Source: a virus
DNA: 64,000 nucleotides
Virus record (IMG/VR): IMGVR_UViG_3300045988_129191
Span: 1-64,000 of that record
Strand: one strand, 5' to 3'
The notes under the pieces were generated by a model. That model was not told where the DNA came from and did no database searches. It saw nothing but the letters and a program-made list of their open reading frames with translations. The position numbers were made by a program, and so were the translations under genes. This document shows positions 40,371 through 47,300 of the stretch, piece after piece. Within the stretch, counting starts at the first letter, position 1, and every line of letters begins with the position of its first letter.

Positions 40371-40745
40371 ATGTATACTTTAATTATAAATAATGGCGAA
40401 TTACAATGCCATATTAAAAGCTTTACAGAAGGCTTAGAATTAAAAGACTTGCCAGATAATTCTGGTAAGAAAGAAACTACAGCGGCTTTATATATTACTA
40501 CTTATATTTCCGCAGAGAACGGTGAAGGAGTAAATACTTTTGATAATATTAGTTTAGTAGATTTTCTTCCATATTTTAAAGTTGAAAATTCTATCAATAA
40601 TATAACTATAAAAGATGGAGAAAAAATAGTTTTTGAATCTACTAAATATACATCTATCTCAAATGCAAAAGGAGATTATGACCAAACCGCAGAAACTCCA
40701 GAATATTATATAGATATTTCTTTTCAGACAAATCCAAGACTTTAA
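40371..40745 (+). CDS. Hypothetical protein (124 aa) at the head of the radical-SAM locus
   Basis: RBS AAAAGGAGAGAG. Confidence 0.45.
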   Translation: MYTLIINNGELQCHIKSFTEGLELKDLPDNSGKKETTAALYITTYISAENGEGVNTFDNISLVDFLPYFKVENSINNITIKDGEKIVFESTKYTSISNAKGDYDQTAETPEYYIDISFQTNPRL

Positions 40746-40759
40746 AGAGAGGTGATTGA

Positions 40760-42001
40760 ATGGCAAGAATAGAATATACAGGTAAGCCAATTCAAGCCTC
40801 TACTATTAAAGACTATTATAATAGATTAGACGCTATTAGAACTTGGAATGGTAGATATTCTGCTATTTCTAACCGAGGAAGTGTTGGCGCTGGTGTTAGA
40901 ATCACCAGCGCGCAAGTTATGAATGAAATTTTTAAAAGCGTTGTAGATACAAAAAATACTGTTTCATTCGTAAATGGCGTTTCAATTTTAGTTCCTATTG
41001 GAGTTACTCAAGGTAGTTCCGCAATCGGAAAGAAATCTATGGCTCAAATTGAAAAAAGCATTGGAATGATGGAACAAGCTTGTCGAGAATATTTTTCAAG
41101 TAAGCGTAATGGTTTTAATAGTTCTAATTATGGTATTTTTGGAAGTTTTAGTTCCAATAGATCTGGATTTAATGGTACTAATAGAACTTCTAATAATACA
41201 AGTTTTAATGTAATTGGTAATAATTCCAATAGAAGTGGATATTTTAACGGTCATAGACAAGGCTATTGTGGAGGTAATAGAACTACTAATAATGCTACTA
41301 ATAGAAGTGGTTATAACAATGCTTTTAGAAGTGGACATCATCATACTTTTAATAGCGGATTTTTTAGTACTAAATGGGCATCCAATGACGGTTCAAATTT
41401 TAGTGCTTTTGGAGATAATAGTGCTAAGTTTTCAAAAGTCCACAATGGTAATAAAAGTGGATTTGCAACTGGAAAATATCACCATCATTATTCTTATTGG
41501 GTATTTAATTGGGCTGGTAATGGAAGTAAAGATGTTCAATTAACAGGTAATGCTATTAAAAGAGGTAATTTTAATGGACATAATGCCTCTAAGTTTTCTG
41601 GAAATGGAAAAAATAGCACTAATAGAACTACTGTAAATCATGCCAATAGAAGTCCTTTCCATAAAGGTGGTTATACTGCAAATAATGATACTAAGTATAC
41701 AGGACATACAATAGGTTGTTCTGGAAATAATGATAGTCATTTTTCCAGTGTAGGTACTACATGCGTAGGAGATAATGCTTCTAATTATAATGGACATGCA
41801 ACTGGATATGCGGGCTTTTTTACTTCTAATTGTCCTGTTAATGATGCGGCAAATGATTCCAGCGTAAACACTTGTCCAAGTAATTACTCCGGAGTATTTA
41901 GTAGTAATTATCAATCTGTTTGTCCAAGTAATTTTAGTAATGTTGATAGAAAATGCTTTACAGTCCATAGTAGTTACACTGTAGAAGGCGTTGATTTTTA
42001 G
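40760..42001 (+). CDS. Low-complexity Asn/Ser/Gly/aromatic-rich protein with Cys-rich C-terminus; candidate substrate of the downstream radical-SAM/SPASM enzymes
   Basis: ~115-aa ordinary N-terminal domain, then repeated NRSG(F/Y)N and NRT motifs, His runs, C-terminal repeated CPSN(Y/F)S; RBS AGAGAGGTG; opposite-strand ORFs in the track are shadows. Confidence 0.6.
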   Translation: MARIEYTGKPIQASTIKDYYNRLDAIRTWNGRYSAISNRGSVGAGVRITSAQVMNEIFKSVVDTKNTVSFVNGVSILVPIGVTQGSSAIGKKSMAQIEKSIGMMEQACREYFSSKRNGFNSSNYGIFGSFSSNRSGFNGTNRTSNNTSFNVIGNNSNRSGYFNGHRQGYCGGNRTTNNATNRSGYNNAFRSGHHHTFNSGFFSTKWASNDGSNFSAFGDNSAKFSKVHNGNKSGFATGKYHHHYSYWVFNWAGNGSKDVQLTGNAIKRGNFNGHNASKFSGNGKNSTNRTTVNHANRSPFHKGGYTANNDTKYTGHTIGCSGNNDSHFSSVGTTCVGDNASNYNGHATGYAGFFTSNCPVNDAANDSSVNTCPSNYSGVFSSNYQSVCPSNFSNVDRKCFTVHSSYTVEGVDF

Positions 42002-42027
42002 ATATATTTAAAGAGTAAAAGGAGTTA

Positions 42028-44846: not shown

Positions 44847-45492
44847 TGAGAATGTAGAAGTTTCTATTTTTGATTTAACTCAAGACATTATGTTTAAAAA
44901 GCAATTTGCATTAATAGATGAATTAGATTTTAGACTTGGTCAAGTTAATGATGAAGATGATGTACTTGAATCAGCCAGGTTAAAAATTTATTATATTTAT
45001 TATTTCATGTTTGATGATAAAGAAAAAGAATATTTCACTCATATAAAGAATTTTATTATTGCGTCTAATAACAAGTTAATTAAACGAATTAAAAATAGCA
45101 CTGTTGAAGGCTTCCTTGATGAAGATACAAATACGATTGAAGAAGTCCATTTGAATAAACTATTTTTAGTTCTTTTGAAAGAATACGCTCCAGAGTTAAG
45201 ATATACAGATTATAAAGATGATGTTTTATCCAATATAAATCAGTATATTTATCTTTTAAATGAAACTTATTTTGATGATTTTAGTTTGTTTCAAGATAAT
45301 GTGTTATATGGAATCTGTATTGGAAAATCTATAGTTGATTATAAAAAGTTCTTGAGTCCTGCAGAATGGGATAGATTTCAATATAGTTTTTATCATTTGT
45401 TTTATAGTATTCAAGAATTTCCAACAGACGATGAAATATTAGATATTGAAAAAGATATTGAAGATAAAGTAGACCTTCTTTATGTAAAATAA
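44809..45492 (+). CDS. Acidic hypothetical protein (227 aa) in radical-SAM locus
   Basis: RBS GGGAG; overlaps upstream gene by 38 nt. Confidence 0.5.
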   Translation: MQEILSTDACMTDENVEVSIFDLTQDIMFKKQFALIDELDFRLGQVNDEDDVLESARLKIYYIYYFMFDDKEKEYFTHIKNFIIASNNKLIKRIKNSTVEGFLDEDTNTIEEVHLNKLFLVLLKEYAPELRYTDYKDDVLSNINQYIYLLNETYFDDFSLFQDNVLYGICIGKSIVDYKKFLSPAEWDRFQYSFYHLFYSIQEFPTDDEILDIEKDIEDKVDLLYVK

Positions 45493-45523
45493 TGAAAAGT
45501 AAAGAGTAAAAGGAGTATAGTAA

Positions 45524-46315
45524 ATGATTTTTATATTGCCATCTATTTATTATAATTTTGAAGATAATATAAATATTTTAAATATGTATAGCAATACAGT
45601 GAAAATCAAAGGTATTGAGGGTAATTTCCCGTCTAACATTATGTGCGGCGGGATTAACGCCCTTGACACCAGATATTTTGCACTGTATGATGATATTGTA
45701 GGTTGTGTAGATAGTTATCCTATAACATCTAAAATGTTATTTGTTGATTGCGGCAACCTCTTTCTAAATGAAAAAGAATATCTAAATCGTTTTGATAAGA
45801 TATTATTTGAAGAATGGGAAAATAATAATTCTACATATTATGAAATTGCTGATTTTAATTTGATTGATTATGTAGTAAAACGTTATCCTAATATTCAAAT
45901 TGCGTTGCATCAAAATGCTTTATTAAAATATAGTTTAAAAGAGATTCAAGATAAAATTGATAGCTGTAAAAATATTAAATACATAATTTTATCAAGACGT
46001 TATGCTCATTTAAAAATAAAAGGTGTCCAAAAAATTTATTTAATGAGTTTTACAAAATGTAAGGATTGTGTAAATTACTGTGATTGTTTATTTGAAGAGT
46101 CTCATAGTATATTGGAATATAGCGGCAAGTCTACATTTAGAAAATGTACTCAAAGGTTTTATAAAGATGATGATGAATTTTTTGAAGAATATAGAAATAT
46201 TCCAAAAGATTTCTCATATGTTTTATTTGATAATATTATTCCAGAAGAGACAAATGAATGCTATACATTAATGATTAATTTATTCGAGAGAGGGCTTAAA
46301 AATGATTTATTATAA
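45524..46315 (+). CDS. Cys-rich hypothetical protein (CKDCVNYCDC), paralog of next ORF
   Basis: RBS AAAAGGAG; N-terminal and central similarity to ORF 46302. Confidence 0.5.
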   Translation: MIFILPSIYYNFEDNINILNMYSNTVKIKGIEGNFPSNIMCGGINALDTRYFALYDDIVGCVDSYPITSKMLFVDCGNLFLNEKEYLNRFDKILFEEWENNNSTYYEIADFNLIDYVVKRYPNIQIALHQNALLKYSLKEIQDKIDSCKNIKYIILSRRYAHLKIKGVQKIYLMSFTKCKDCVNYCDCLFEESHSILEYSGKSTFRKCTQRFYKDDDEFFEEYRNIPKDFSYVLFDNIIPEETNECYTLMINLFERGLKNDLL

Positions 46316-47300
46316 TTTACCTGGATTTTATGAACACTTTACTTTAAATAAGTTTATTTTAGAATTACATGAAACCAATCCTGAATATTTCAGAGATGGA
46401 ATTAAGATTGCTACTTTCTTTGGTAATTTCCCATTCTGTACTTGGGATGGCGGCAGAAACTTTCCATTTTATCGTCAAATCACAAAAGAGGAAATTGAAA
46501 AGATTAGAGATTTTTATAAATTCTATAATATTCCTATGAGATTAATTTTTACCAATTCCGCAATCGAAGAAGAAGATTTATATGATCCATTTTGTAATCT
46601 TCAAATGAGATTACTTGAAGATGGTAATAACGAAGTTGTTGTAAATTCTCCTCTTTTGGAACAGTATTTAAGAGAGACTTATCCAGATTTTAAATATATT
46701 AGTTCTACAACTAAATGTCTAAATAAGGAGAAATTTCTTAAAGAACTTCAAAATCCAGATTATTATCAAGTTTGCTTAGATTATAATTTGAATAAAAATA
46801 TGGATATGCTTGAGAATATTCCTCAAGAGCTACGAAACAAATGTGAGTTTTTATCAAATGCAATTTGTCATAGTCATTGCCCTGTTAGAAAATCACATTA
46901 TCTCGACACCAGTAAAACTAATTTAACATATGGCAGACACAAATACAGTATTACCGCAAAATGTCAAATTAAAGGTGGTATTAATGATCCTGATACTCTT
47001 GGAAAACAAAATAATTTGACTTGGGAAAATATTCAAGAATATAATTCAATGGGATATAAATATTTTAAATTTGAAGGAAGAACATTGCCAAGCGCAGATA
47101 TTTTTGCTAATTATTTATACTATTTATTTAAACCTGAATATATTCCAACTATTGTGAGTCAATCCTCATATGTACCAGGGATATTCTTTAACAACCCTAA
47201 TTCTCAGTTCTATTTAGATATGGTAAAAAGAACTGATGCATCTTTAGAGGCAGATAATGGTGTAGATGCAAATGAATGTGTCATGAGTTGGCCATTCTAA
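46302..47300 (+). CDS. Cys-rich hypothetical protein (Cx8Cx3C...C), paralog of previous ORF
   Basis: RBS GAGAGGG; shares LP..YY.F and YL...YP(N/D) segments with ORF 45524. Confidence 0.5.
   Translation: MIYYNLPGFYEHFTLNKFILELHETNPEYFRDGIKIATFFGNFPFCTWDGGRNFPFYRQITKEEIEKIRDFYKFYNIPMRLIFTNSAIEEEDLYDPFCNLQMRLLEDGNNEVVVNSPLLEQYLRETYPDFKYISSTTKCLNKEKFLKELQNPDYYQVCLDYNLNKNMDMLENIPQELRNKCEFLSNAICHSHCPVRKSHYLDTSKTNLTYGRHKYSITAKCQIKGGINDPDTLGKQNNLTWENIQEYNSMGYKYFKFEGRTLPSADIFANYLYYLFKPEYIPTIVSQSSYVPGIFFNNPNSQFYLDMVKRTDASLEADNGVDANECVMSWPF

Follow-up and report, generated by a model that had tools for sequence, protein, structure and literature searches.

The window, that is, the whole stretch of 64,000 nucleotides analysed, carries at positions 40371-47300 a cassette of seven plus-strand open reading frames. 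These are co-directional and tightly packed, with spacings between successive frames of 14, 26, -4, -38, 31 and -14 nt (negative values are overlaps); the coordinates and the short gaps and overlaps bear out the seven tightly coupled genes of the original prediction. The features are:

ORF1, 40371-40745, plus strand: acidic protein of 124 aa, pI 4.4, directly 5' of the putative precursor
ORF2, 40760-42001, plus strand: low-complexity putative precursor of 413 aa
ORF2 N-domain, 40760-41095, plus strand: residues ~1-112, putative leader-like or recognition domain
ORF2 core, 41096-42001, plus strand: residues 113-413, putative modified part
rSAM1, 42028-43455, plus strand: radical-SAM protein of 475 aa with a TTG start and a twitch-like C-terminal domain
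rSAM2, 43452-44846, plus strand: radical-SAM/SPASM protein of 464 aa, its start overlapping the rSAM1 stop (ATGA)
ORF5, 44809-45492, plus strand: acidic protein of 227 aa, pI 4.3, overlapping rSAM2 by 38 nt
ORF6, 45524-46315, plus strand: U32-like paralogue of 263 aa
ORF7, 46302-47300, plus strand: U32-family TIM-barrel protein of 332 aa, its start overlapping ORF6 by 14 nt
ORF8, 47371-47955, plus strand: between ORF7 and the terminator, doubtful as a cassette member
Bidirectional intrinsic terminator, 47961-47987, no strand assigned: 12-bp stem, closing the plus-strand unit 3' of ORF8

Upstream of the cassette are NrdD/NrdG, a dUTPase-like ORF and one further ORF; downstream is a convergent late block that includes a holin and a tail-fibre gene. 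ORF8 appears to be a doubtful member, and in related loci its homologues sit elsewhere and in the opposite orientation. Pfam and NCBIfam scans of the window detected no RiPP recognition element, leader protease or exporter.

Related cassettes and the radical-SAM pair

How general is this arrangement? Relatives were counted as 42 distinct clusters (85% nt), a recurrence that places the arrangement far beyond chance; gene content, domain families, and the way in which the cassette parts stay linked and co-vary can be observed directly. rSAM1 is found directly 5' of rSAM2 in 42/42 clusters, and the two are an obligate pair. Most clusters also have a protein that ends at most ~260 nt before rSAM1 and begins with an alignable N-domain of ~100 aa; the remainder, 40-560 aa, is a hypervariable core in which S, N, G, T, D, Y, C or H abound. 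In L046 and L047, two GC-rich MAG loci, the rSAM pair is present and no recognisable low-complexity protein lies upstream. A U32 gene is present in the fetched flank of 22 of the 42 clusters, and GT2 genes lie near several cassettes, among them one for a fused rSAM-GT2 protein. Of interest is locus L055, where the whole set (precursor, rSAM1, rSAM2, small ORF, U32a, U32b) is duplicated in tandem; the second copy has its own complete and distinct precursor, and that of the first is cut by the locus edge. The order of the cassette is permuted in L020, with the genes still together, and two or three cassettes are present in some phage genomes.

The two tandem radical-SAM enzymes were each predicted to carry CxxxCxxC and a SPASM motif. 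The first motif is present in both (C22/C26/C29 in rSAM1, C33/C37/C40 in rSAM2), and rSAM2 has a canonical SPASM Cx2Cx5Cx3C at residues 382-395, its seven SPASM cysteines (C316, C334, C382, C385, C391, C395 and C414) being invariant across 12 diverged homologues. The SPASM assignment does not hold for rSAM1, where the string is Cx2Cx4Cx3C (299-311; not Cx5) and is unconserved among relatives. Only C311, C329 and C431 are invariant there outside the SAM cluster; with just these three cysteines the C-terminal domain shows a twitch-like pattern, not SPASM. The conserved cysteines of the cassette enzymes are probable Fe-S ligands.

Matches to PF04055 are above the gathering score of 29.5 for rSAM1 (E 1.5e-7, 32.2 bits) and below it for rSAM2 (23.4 bits). 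The best NCBIfam matches of rSAM1 are GggB, PapB and a twitch rSAM model, all far under the cut-offs; the QhpD model is matched by 12/12 rSAM2 homologues and the SPASM model by 8/12, none near curated cut-offs. Going by these scores, the cassette fits no curated rSAM family. Above noise, nearly all NCBIfam matches fall in peptide-modifying rSAM families; viperin, MoaA and Rv1681 are exceptions, and their matches are restricted to the common N-terminal region of the SAM cluster. Among solved structures, CteB, the triceptide synthase ChlB (PMC11499958) and SkfB come closest: profile searches of the PDB return the CteB SPASM domain as best match for rSAM2 (E 2e-7), and CteB 5wgg (E 1.3e-4), ChlB 9gm3 (E 1.8e-4) and SkfB (E 3.4e-3) for rSAM1. 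A search of 1.84 billion proteins gives 246 representatives of the rSAM2 family at E <= 1e-30.

The putative precursor and the small acidic proteins

The N-domain of ORF2 aligns with the N-termini of proteins 5' of rSAM1 in 11 diverged loci. It is probably a conserved three-helix domain, as modelled by AlphaFold2 (helices at 13-29, 50-67 and 92-114, pLDDT only ~55-68). No fold is given for the core (pLDDT 20-30; mean for the whole of ORF2, 32), which is of low complexity, rich in N, S, G and T, and contains many F/Y/W/H residues. It repeats N-R-S/T-G-aromatic motifs, and N[RK][ST] occurs eight times against 1.0 expected (z = 7.3). Is the core a mere spacer? In 20 sequences of the window subtype (the window and 19 database clusters at 67-93% identity), ORF2 is exactly 413 aa long with zero indels, 42 of its 44 aromatic positions are retained by 90% or more of the sequences, and dN/dS is 0.27 for the core (0.19 for the N-domain). 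By these measures the core is a constrained sequence and not a spacer.

Six of the eight ORF2 cysteines lie within the last 95 residues, so the description of a low-complexity, Cys-tailed protein stands for the window; it fails as a conserved feature, as Cys-free cores exist in relatives. From the alignments, strong constraint falls on the aromatic residues, and the Cys tail is lineage-specific. Some relatives' cores are nearly without aromatic residues, and therefore the rSAM chemistry cannot be aromatic-specific family-wide. Occurrence of the 413-aa protein as a conserved tail or spore-coat-like protein in phages lacking the rSAM genes had been named as evidence against a substrate role; a narrow search found no N-domain protein without the rSAM pair.

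A small ORF occupies the ORF1 position in most related cassettes, with poorly conserved sequences; ORF1 itself has no match in Pfam, NCBIfam, PHROGs or PADLOC. ORF5, the acidic protein anticipated downstream of the rSAM pair, keeps its place across related cassettes and varies in length (85-233 aa) and sequence; it has only a weak PHROG match.

The U32 pair and a link to prephenate

ORF6 and ORF7 had been viewed as Cys-rich paralogues of unknown family. The paralogy is upheld, at least in the N-terminal half (ORF6 against the ORF7 family: hhalign probability 90%, E 1.5e-6), and the family can be named: sequence comparison makes both U32-family proteins, like UbiU/UbiV, RlhA and TrhP, even though both window proteins fall short of the PF01136 threshold. 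Cysteine columns across 12 homologues show C179, C182, C186 or C188, and C208 to be conserved in ORF6, probable ligands of a 4Fe-4S cluster; C158, C189, C193 and C221 are invariant in ORF7. UbiU-UbiV is a heterodimer with one 4Fe-4S cluster per subunit and four Cys ligands in each (PMC6747719). U32 proteins are linked to O2-independent, prephenate-dependent hydroxylation (PMC6747719, PMC10990095), prephenate being the oxygen donor (PMC10990095), and their substrates so far are RNA and quinones (PMC6747719, PMC10990095). That ORF6 and ORF7 are apparently U32 Fe-S proteins points to O2-independent hydroxylation. We know of no protein that is the target of a U32 protein.

Prephenate is supplied by chorismate mutase. 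A chorismate mutase gene (PF01817, E 1.7e-14) and a DASS transporter gene lie less than 10 kb from the cassette in L002 and L097. With the mutase as query, seven phage loci are found; the transporter adjoins it in 7/7 and a U32-like gene is near it in 7/7, within 3 kb in four and at ~10 kb in three, the latter being L097-group contigs with the U32-like gene at the cassette end. Chorismate mutase also has U32-like genes beside it where the 3-kb flanks are free of rSAM genes, and single U32-like homologues are found in other phages without the rSAM pair (L001, L032-L043); therefore, U32 proteins may act on another substrate. The presence of U32 genes correlates weakly with the aromatic content of the core (0.19 against 0.15, p = 0.066).

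Interpretation, alternatives and known systems

What does the cassette make? It is, on balance, probably a phage-encoded RiPP-like protein-maturation system, because the two rSAM genes always occur as a pair, a variable-core protein precedes this pair in most lineages, tailoring genes (YcaO, GT2, U32) are swapped, and the cassette is duplicated and permuted as a unit. In this the original prediction of a novel system with the upstream low-complexity protein as substrate is supported by comparative genomics, apart from the details of rSAM1, the U32 paralogues and the Cys tail corrected above. We infer that ORF2 is the substrate, its helical N-domain (~110 aa) serving for recognition in a leader-like manner and its 300-aa low-complexity core receiving the modification. 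5'-Deoxyadenosyl radicals generated by rSAM1 (twitch-type) and rSAM2 (SPASM-type) would take hydrogen atoms from core residues, which would lead to many intramolecular cross-links. In the window subtype these would most likely form at the conserved aromatics (cyclophane-type C-C links), and the C-terminal cysteines may also be cross-linked, as thioethers. ORF6 and ORF7, which probably pair in the manner of UbiU/UbiV as [4Fe-4S] proteins of the U32 family, would hydroxylate aromatic side chains of ORF2 without O2, with prephenate as the presumed oxygen donor. The end product would be a large, rigid, protease-resistant protein, which could be virion- or fibre-associated or a host-interaction factor.

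Could the two enzyme pairs be unrelated? On that rather unlikely reading, the rSAM pair modifies the low-complexity protein and the U32 pair is a mere neighbour, carrying out, in the manner of RlhA and TrhP, O2-independent C5-hydroxylation of pyrimidines in host tRNA/rRNA or phage nucleic acid. It agrees with the established U32 substrates, the single U32-like homologues in phages without the rSAM pair, the U32-like genes that accompany chorismate mutase and the transporter away from rSAM genes, and the lack of a U32 gene in the fetched flank of 20/42 rSAM-pair clusters. However, the U32 pair, where present, is closely packed with the cassette and co-directional with it, as the 14-nt ORF6/ORF7 overlap and the 31-nt ORF5-ORF6 gap illustrate; it is carried along in the L055 duplication, stays adjacent in the permuted L020, and consists of two diverged paralogues, as does the dedicated UbiU/UbiV pair. 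It is improbable that ORF2 is instead an ordinary structural protein, e.g. a fibre or decoration with a conserved virion-anchoring N-domain and a variable tip, and that the four Fe-S enzymes produce a small molecule or a cofactor, or have a different target to modify. Receptor-binding proteins do combine a conserved N-terminus with a variable C-terminus, and a tail-fibre-like gene whose C-terminal domain is of S74 type is near the cassette in six clusters (directly 5' in L017, L021 and L091); the window has a 2048-aa tail-fibre gene 4.3 kb away. Yet the precursor-like gene adjoins the rSAM pair in most clusters despite differing surroundings, and a gene for YcaO (PF02624, E 1.7e-30), a peptide-backbone-modifying enzyme family, directly adjoins the cassette in 11/42. 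The duplicated copy that is fully seen has its own core protein, the nearest relatives of the rSAM enzymes are peptide maturases, and in the window the cassette shares the strand of the replication genes with no terminator-like site between.

An anaerobic sulfatase-maturase-type system (Cys/Ser to formylglycine), or a viperin-like nucleotide-modifying one, is hinted at by weak matches to TIGR03942 (27 bits), a viperin NCBIfam model (28.9 bits) and PADLOC pVip (E 8e-8). These span only the first 60-75 residues, around CxxxCxxC (for viperin, profile positions 2-60 of 257), and score 6- to 13-fold under the curated cut-offs (349 and 180 bits). Clustering with anaerobic sulfatase maturases, considered a risk at the outset, is thus not seen, and the family scores effectively refute this reading, which we hold to be highly improbable. 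Two enzymes of 460-475 aa that end in twitch or SPASM C-domains are also a different architecture, and no sulfatase appears in Pfam/NCBIfam scans of the cassette ORFs or in the called-gene annotation of related loci.

The maturation reading, if true, presents a new kind of substrate for U32 hydroxylases, a large repetitive protein: the conserved cassette of a common gut phage appears to cross-link this protein and probably to hydroxylate it by an O2-independent route. No published description of such a cassette was found, and several known systems offer partial parallels. ORF6 and ORF7 share with UbiU/UbiV, RlhA and TrhP the TIM-barrel U32 fold, four conserved cysteines each, the anaerobic setting and, in related phages, the genomic link of U32-like genes to chorismate mutase, and with the UbiU-UbiV heterodimer the two adjacent diverged paralogues. 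They differ in the ORF7 spacing, Cx30Cx3Cx27C (typical U32, CX6CX15CX3/4C; UbiV, CXnCX12CX3C), in lacking UbiT or a quinone pathway, and in being linked to a putative ribosomal protein substrate and rSAM enzymes. The His-Xaa-Ser system (HxsA with the paired rSAM enzymes HxsB and HxsC), to our knowledge known from bioinformatics alone, likewise encodes an rSAM pair with a repeat-containing peptide. Matches are weak (rSAM2-HxsB E 4e-4, rSAM1-HxsC E 5e-4; ~19 bits against cut-offs of 268-370), HxsD is absent from the cassette, and its precursors are unrelated and much larger. A long, conserved, leader-like N-domain ahead of a core with many N, G, S, T or C residues is also found in proteusins and other long-leader RiPPs (NHLP or Nif11 leaders), and YcaO, which modifies linear azole peptides, adjoins some relatives of the cassette. 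We take the cassette cores to resemble those of both groups, microcin B17 included; ORF2, however, matches neither NHLP nor Nif11 models, YcaO is missing from the window cassette, and the enzymes differ.

From the radical-SAM/SPASM maturases (CteB/SCIFF, PapB, QhpD, PqqE and triceptide synthases, e.g. ChlB, YhhB and OscB) the cassette is set apart by scores that do not approach curated thresholds (57 bits at best, against 650), the obligate pairing of two unlike rSAM enzymes, the lack of a detected RRE domain, a 'leader' that is a 100-aa domain, low-complexity repeat cores of up to 560 aa, and its location in large gut phages and prophages. It nonetheless shares with them the CxxxCxxC core, the full 7-Cys SPASM motif in rSAM2, a precursor gene directly upstream and a precursor with a conserved N-terminal part and a variable core, and these maturases are the best sequence and structure matches of the cassette enzymes.

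Layout of the cassette and its phage surroundings

The cassette (window 40371-47300, + strand) was originally predicted to be a set of seven co-directional, tightly coupled genes, and this is confirmed by the ORF listing. ORF1 to ORF7 encode 124, 413, 475, 464, 227, 263 and 332 aa, respectively, all on the + strand, with successive gaps of 14, 26, -4, -38, 31 and -14 nt. ORF1 and ORF5 are small acidic ORFs, ORF2 is the putative precursor (N-domain, residues 1-112; low-complexity core, 113-413), the next two are the radical-SAM enzymes rSAM1 and rSAM2, and ORF6 and ORF7 are a U32-like pair. 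A terminator search of the window found nothing terminator-like that would part the cassette from the ORFs 5' of it. Beyond the cassette, the earliest strong site separates the + strand unit, whose last gene is ORF8 (47371-47955, a doubtful member), from a convergent - strand block. The features on the 3' side are as follows.

47961-47987, both strands: bidirectional terminator just 3' of ORF8, a stem-loop with a perfect 12-bp stem, flanked by T-runs
47979-48299, - strand: small HExxH metalloprotease-like ORF (PHROG match phrog_1233 / phrog_87)
50950-51372, - strand: holin (PHROG match phrog_13712)
51562-57708, - strand: 2048-aa protein, C-terminus similar to an S74-type chaperone-like domain (tblastn match at 51565-51993)

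The window phage is large and low in GC; its genetic code is the standard one, and the 64 kb contain no tRNA genes. Genes 5' of the cassette encode topoisomerase II subunits, an NAD-dependent ligase, a RecJ-like exonuclease and a 1308-aa DNA polymerase; there are also ORFs of NrdD and NrdG size, and NRDD and Gly_radical are annotated in one syntenic relative. The 3' convergent block is a late block with the holin and the 2048-aa protein, which is probably a tail fibre because of its S74-type C-terminal domain. PHROG annotation of the neighbouring genes was mostly uninformative. The late block also holds two uncharacterised conserved genes, one for a 256-aa Gly/Asn-rich protein with a hydrophobic segment (49297-50067, - strand; phrog_16490) and then one for a 140-aa protein (phrog_20016). 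Conserved repeats of 41-48 nt with the pattern TTGAYTT-N17-TATAAT are present at 3818-3858, 15945-15986, 16211-16251, 19174-19215, 27775-27816 and 38136-38177, the last being 2.2 kb 5' of the cassette. They are probably the phage's own sigma-70-type promoters.

Cassettes of 90-99% protein identity were found on 12 IMG/VR contigs of 15-196 kb. The ORF2 and ORF7 sequence clusters have hundreds of members, and the phage is thus a common one. In the deposited-phage collection, DNA and protein searches with the cassette DNA and rSAM2 gave no match, and ORF7 gave only three, all to unannotated faecal contigs.

The radical-SAM pair and its candidate substrate

Radical-SAM enzymes were recognized by the motif CxxxCxxC, which binds the SAM-cleaving 4Fe-4S cluster, together with a PF04055 profile match. 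rSAM1 has both (C22/C26/C29; 32.2 bits, cut-off 29.5); rSAM2 carries the motif at C33/C37/C40, invariant in 12 homologues, and scores 23.4 bits, below the cut-off. The SPASM domain (TIGR04085 / PF13186) is defined by a seven-Cys arrangement, CX9-15GX4C ... CX2CX5CX3C ... C, with two auxiliary clusters. In alignments with homologues drawn from 11 diverged loci, rSAM2 has this canonical arrangement with every Cys invariant (C316, C334, C382, C385, C391, C395 and C414). TIGR04085 is matched by eight of the 12 rSAM2 homologues (best E 4.7e-6), the window rSAM2 scoring 16.6 bits against a cut-off of 27. Both enzymes had been thought to carry SPASM as well as CxxxCxxC; the latter stands for both and the former for rSAM2, whereas rSAM1 retains only C311, C329 and C431 as invariant residues beyond the SAM cluster. 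Its Cx2Cx4Cx3C (299-311) is peculiar to the window's lineage and missing in most homologues, and its best domain-level match is a twitch-domain radical-SAM model (E 5e-11, under that model's cut-off).

On what might these enzymes act? NCBIfam matches above noise include GggB, PapB, YhhB, AmcB, QhpD, DynA, SCIFF, CXXX-repeat, HxsB and HxsC. Matches of the pair are almost all to peptide-modifying families, with viperin, MoaA and Rv1681 covering the N-terminal SAM-cluster region only, and every score falls far short of its curated cut-off (57 bits vs 650 at best). A PDB profile search placed CteB, the thioether-forming SCIFF maturase, at the top for both enzymes. Next came ChlB, a triceptide (cyclophane) synthase (PMC11499958), and, for rSAM1 only, SkfB; direct sequence searches of single cassette proteins against the PDB were uninformative. 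The triceptide/cyclophane synthase models XyeB, YhhB, GrrM/OscB, FxsB, AmcB and DynA give at most 36 bits against cut-offs of 310-450, too low for membership by sequence. Clustering with anaerobic sulfatase maturases, the outcome named as fatal to the original prediction, was not observed. TIGR03942 scores 27.3 bits vs 349; three of the 12 rSAM2 homologues match it, all under the cut-off (best E 2e-12), and no sulfatase appears in Pfam/NCBIfam scans of the cassette ORFs or in the called-gene annotation of related loci. The pVip viperin candidate was also rejected, as the PADLOC match (E 8e-8) covers only positions 2-60 of the 257 in the profile and NCBIfam gives 28.9 bits vs 180. An exhaustive phmmer search of 1.84 billion proteins with rSAM2 returned 246 representatives at E <= 1e-30 and 515 at E <= 1e-3; in such searches the family is a sizeable one, well separated from others.

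Related loci were collected via ORF7 and via rSAM2 from IMG/VR and GTDB genomes, and 102 rSAM2 instances form 42 clusters at 85% nucleotide identity. rSAM2 is immediately preceded by rSAM1 in all 42. In most, an ORF ending within about 260 nt of rSAM1 has an alignable N-domain (A2) of about 100 aa and a low-complexity, hypervariable core of 40-560 aa. A candidate substrate directly upstream of the enzymes, as had been proposed, thus recurs in most clusters; a precursor with leader and core beside its modifying enzymes is part of the general definition of a RiPP gene cluster. The GC-rich MAG contigs L046 and L047 have no recognizable precursor upstream of the pair; the other exceptions are loci that end at a contig edge. 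Core types follow enzyme clade: F/Y/N/R/T repeats (GNRTFY), SNGT(C/K/N) pentapeptides, CS-TC-type Cys repeats, and D/S/Y/G-rich cores. A word-indexed search with the precursor N-domain returned near-identical fragments only, its alignment lacks any stretch of sufficient conservation to scan a collection with, and no N-domain was found without the rSAM pair by a degenerate DNA pattern, a weak test that gave only known cassette loci.

ORF2 of the window type is exactly 413 aa, with no indels in 20 sequences (the window and 19 clusters, 67-93% identity). Positions of F, Y or W remain aromatic or His in >=90% of these sequences in 42 of 44 cases; for S, T, A, K and D positions, conservation drops to just 30-49%. 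dN/dS is 0.27 for the core, 0.19 for the N-domain and 0.05-0.10 for the enzymes; judged by sequence comparison, the core is under constraint. The motif N-[RK]-[ST] occurs eight times against 1.0 expected and is seen again as GNRTF in a distant relative, and a C-terminal tail, ...VEG(V/I)D(F/M), is common to the ORF2 clade. In triceptide precursors it is aromatic-X-X motifs that become cross-linked; in the core, [FYW]-x-[NRKSTDG] shows no enrichment over composition (z = 1.1). AlphaFold2, given 20 homologues (mostly close, one at 31% identity), predicts three moderate-confidence helices in the N-domain and a core without a fold; the ORF2 model as a whole is of low confidence (mean pLDDT 32). 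Two other explanations of the core were set aside. The N-x-S/T N-glycosylation sequon exceeds expectation in the window core (z = 4.7), but relatives show no such enrichment, which rules it out as a general feature, and a diversity-generating retroelement acting on the Asn-rich core lacks a template/variable repeat pair anywhere in the window.

The neighbourhood varies among relatives. A U32 gene is present in the fetched flank of 22 of the 42 clusters, usually as an adjacent pair, and a YcaO gene (PF02624, E 1.7e-30) directly adjoins the cassette in 11, lying beside the precursor or the U32 pair (L097:5760-7565; also L087, L094, L045, L099, L109, L020 and L050). Cores associated with YcaO are rich in Cys, Ser and Thr and in this resemble substrates for azoline formation. 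Family-2 glycosyltransferase (GT2) genes lie near several clusters. They include a radical-SAM fusion (PF04055 + PF00535) 5' of the cassette at L029:2324-4393 (= L053), with an extra U32-like gene beside it at 1423-2310; a similar ORF is at L026:3791-5572, also 5' of the cassette. Just 5' of the L025 cassette is a second RiPP-like pair (432-1184 and 2031-3317), a 250-aa protein with a Cys/Gly/Ser-rich CxxxC-repeat tail and another rSAM gene with CxxxCxxC. No RRE/PqqD, protease or transporter family was matched in the seven ORFs (Pfam, NCBIfam, PHROGs); the N-terminal extensions of the rSAM enzymes (15-30 aa) are too short for an RRE, and an M28-like peptidase is near some relatives only.

Several phage genomes have more than one cassette, two or three each. 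L055, a Muribaculaceae MAG contig, has a tandem duplication that takes in the whole cassette along with its U32 pair; copy 2 has its own complete core protein, and the precursor of copy 1 is cut by the locus edge. Gene order also differs, L020 having U32a, U32b, a small ORF, the precursor, rSAM1 and rSAM2. In many related phages (L021, L022, L024, L025, L026, L030, L031, L052, L055 and others) TAG is read as a sense codon, since coding density about doubles with TAG read-through. Genome matches are mostly to Clostridia MAGs, but one, L053, comes from a named record that is not a MAG, Clostridiales Family XIII bacterium PM5-7, where it lies within a contig of 428 kb (JBNDKG010000001.1:86438-107697). 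This locus is 100% identical to IMG/VR contig 2940228231_000002 (114 kb). It is a prophage copy and a possible experimental system.

The U32-like pair and prephenate

ORF6 and ORF7 had been described as two Cys-rich paralogues of unknown family. They belong instead to the U32 family (PF01136, TIM-barrel by profile or structure): ORF7 has 212 detectable homologues, of which a few carry PF01136 and one is called a PrtC-family protease by its source. In an alignment of 27 family members, nine match PF01136, and ORF6 matches the ORF7-family profile. To our knowledge, few U32 subfamilies have been assigned a function. UbiU pairs with UbiV in a heterodimer, and each protein binds a 4Fe-4S cluster via four Cys, and most U32 subfamilies share such Cys motifs (PMC6747719). 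C158, C189, C193 and C221 never vary among 27 sequences of the ORF7 family, and the ORF6 family has four conserved Cys columns; these are predicted ligands of the UbiU/UbiV type, although their spacing differs from the published U32 motifs (PMC6747719). Prephenate is the oxygen donor in UbiU/V-dependent hydroxylations, and O2-independent hydroxylation of RNA is linked to RlhA and TrhP (PMC10990095).

In L002 and L097, the 10 kb around the cassette contain a type II chorismate mutase (PF01817, E 1.7e-14) and an adjoining DASS-family transporter. Used as an IMG/VR query, the chorismate mutase gave seven loci, with the transporter adjoining in all seven. Four loci found solely by this route have a U32-like gene within 3 kb, and three L097-group contigs have one about 10 kb away, at the cassette end. 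The U32-like gene, the DASS-family (Na_sulph_symp/CitMHS) transporter and the chorismate mutase recur as a phage module (L120-L126; L002:17614-19214; L097:62-1614). The module suggests a phage-driven supply of prephenate, and the phage U32-like proteins are tied to it, as the chorismate mutase loci hold U32-like genes. No chorismate mutase was found in the 64-kb window.

Interpretation and known systems

On balance, the cassette is probably a RiPP-like maturation system. The rSAM pair would be the core modifying machinery, acting on ORF2, and the U32 pair would serve as tailoring hydroxylases. That ORF2 is the substrate of the rSAM pair is held with greater confidence than the reading as a whole; that the U32 pair acts on this same substrate is closer to an even call, and slightly doubtful. 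The main rival places the U32 pair on nucleic acid instead, and the occurrence of U32-like genes alone in other phages favours it. Across clusters, U32 presence shows a weak trend with core aromatic content (p = 0.066). Might ORF2 be purely structural, and the enzymes have other targets? This is less likely, because YcaO adjoins the cassette in relatives and the cassette behaves as a unit.

Under the preferred maturation reading, we infer the type of cross-link solely from which residues are conserved and which enzymes are closest. Cross-linking could not be aromatic-specific across the family, since some cores have few aromatic residues. A bolder and rather unlikely version is an unrecognized phage 'mega-RiPP' class, in which an obligate twitch and SPASM pair makes polycyclic scaffolds by stitching together repetitive cores as long as 560 residues, and the U32 pair then performs the first known protein-directed, prephenate-dependent anaerobic aromatic hydroxylation. 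Cross-linked, phenol- or catechol-rich material would then be made without oxygen, and gut phages could use it on the virion or in the infected cell. It is possible that the mature product is virion-associated; S74-type tail-fibre genes are near the cassette in six clusters.

If the maturation reading is true, RiPP-type radical chemistry is no longer confined to short peptides but reaches entire phage proteins several hundred residues long, and the poorly understood U32 family gains a protein substrate. Abundant human-gut phages would be spending four Fe-S enzymes on one modified protein, an investment to which related lineages add a chorismate mutase and a transporter. The hypervariable cores and their matched enzyme sets constitute a natural library for new cross-linking chemistry, and the PM5-7 prophage copy, if the strain can be had in culture, brings the system within experimental reach.

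The arrangement was predicted to be unlike characterized RiPP classes or phage functions, and this has held. No part of the cassette is claimed by a curated family, and it is not described in the literature found on U32 with rSAM or RiPP, cyclophanes with phage, or phage-encoded RiPP/YcaO. A precursor with rSAM maturases is a known logic; what is new is that twitch and SPASM enzymes form an obligate pair, that the leader has the size of a domain and the repetitive cores are very large, and that there is a U32 pair and a phage setting.
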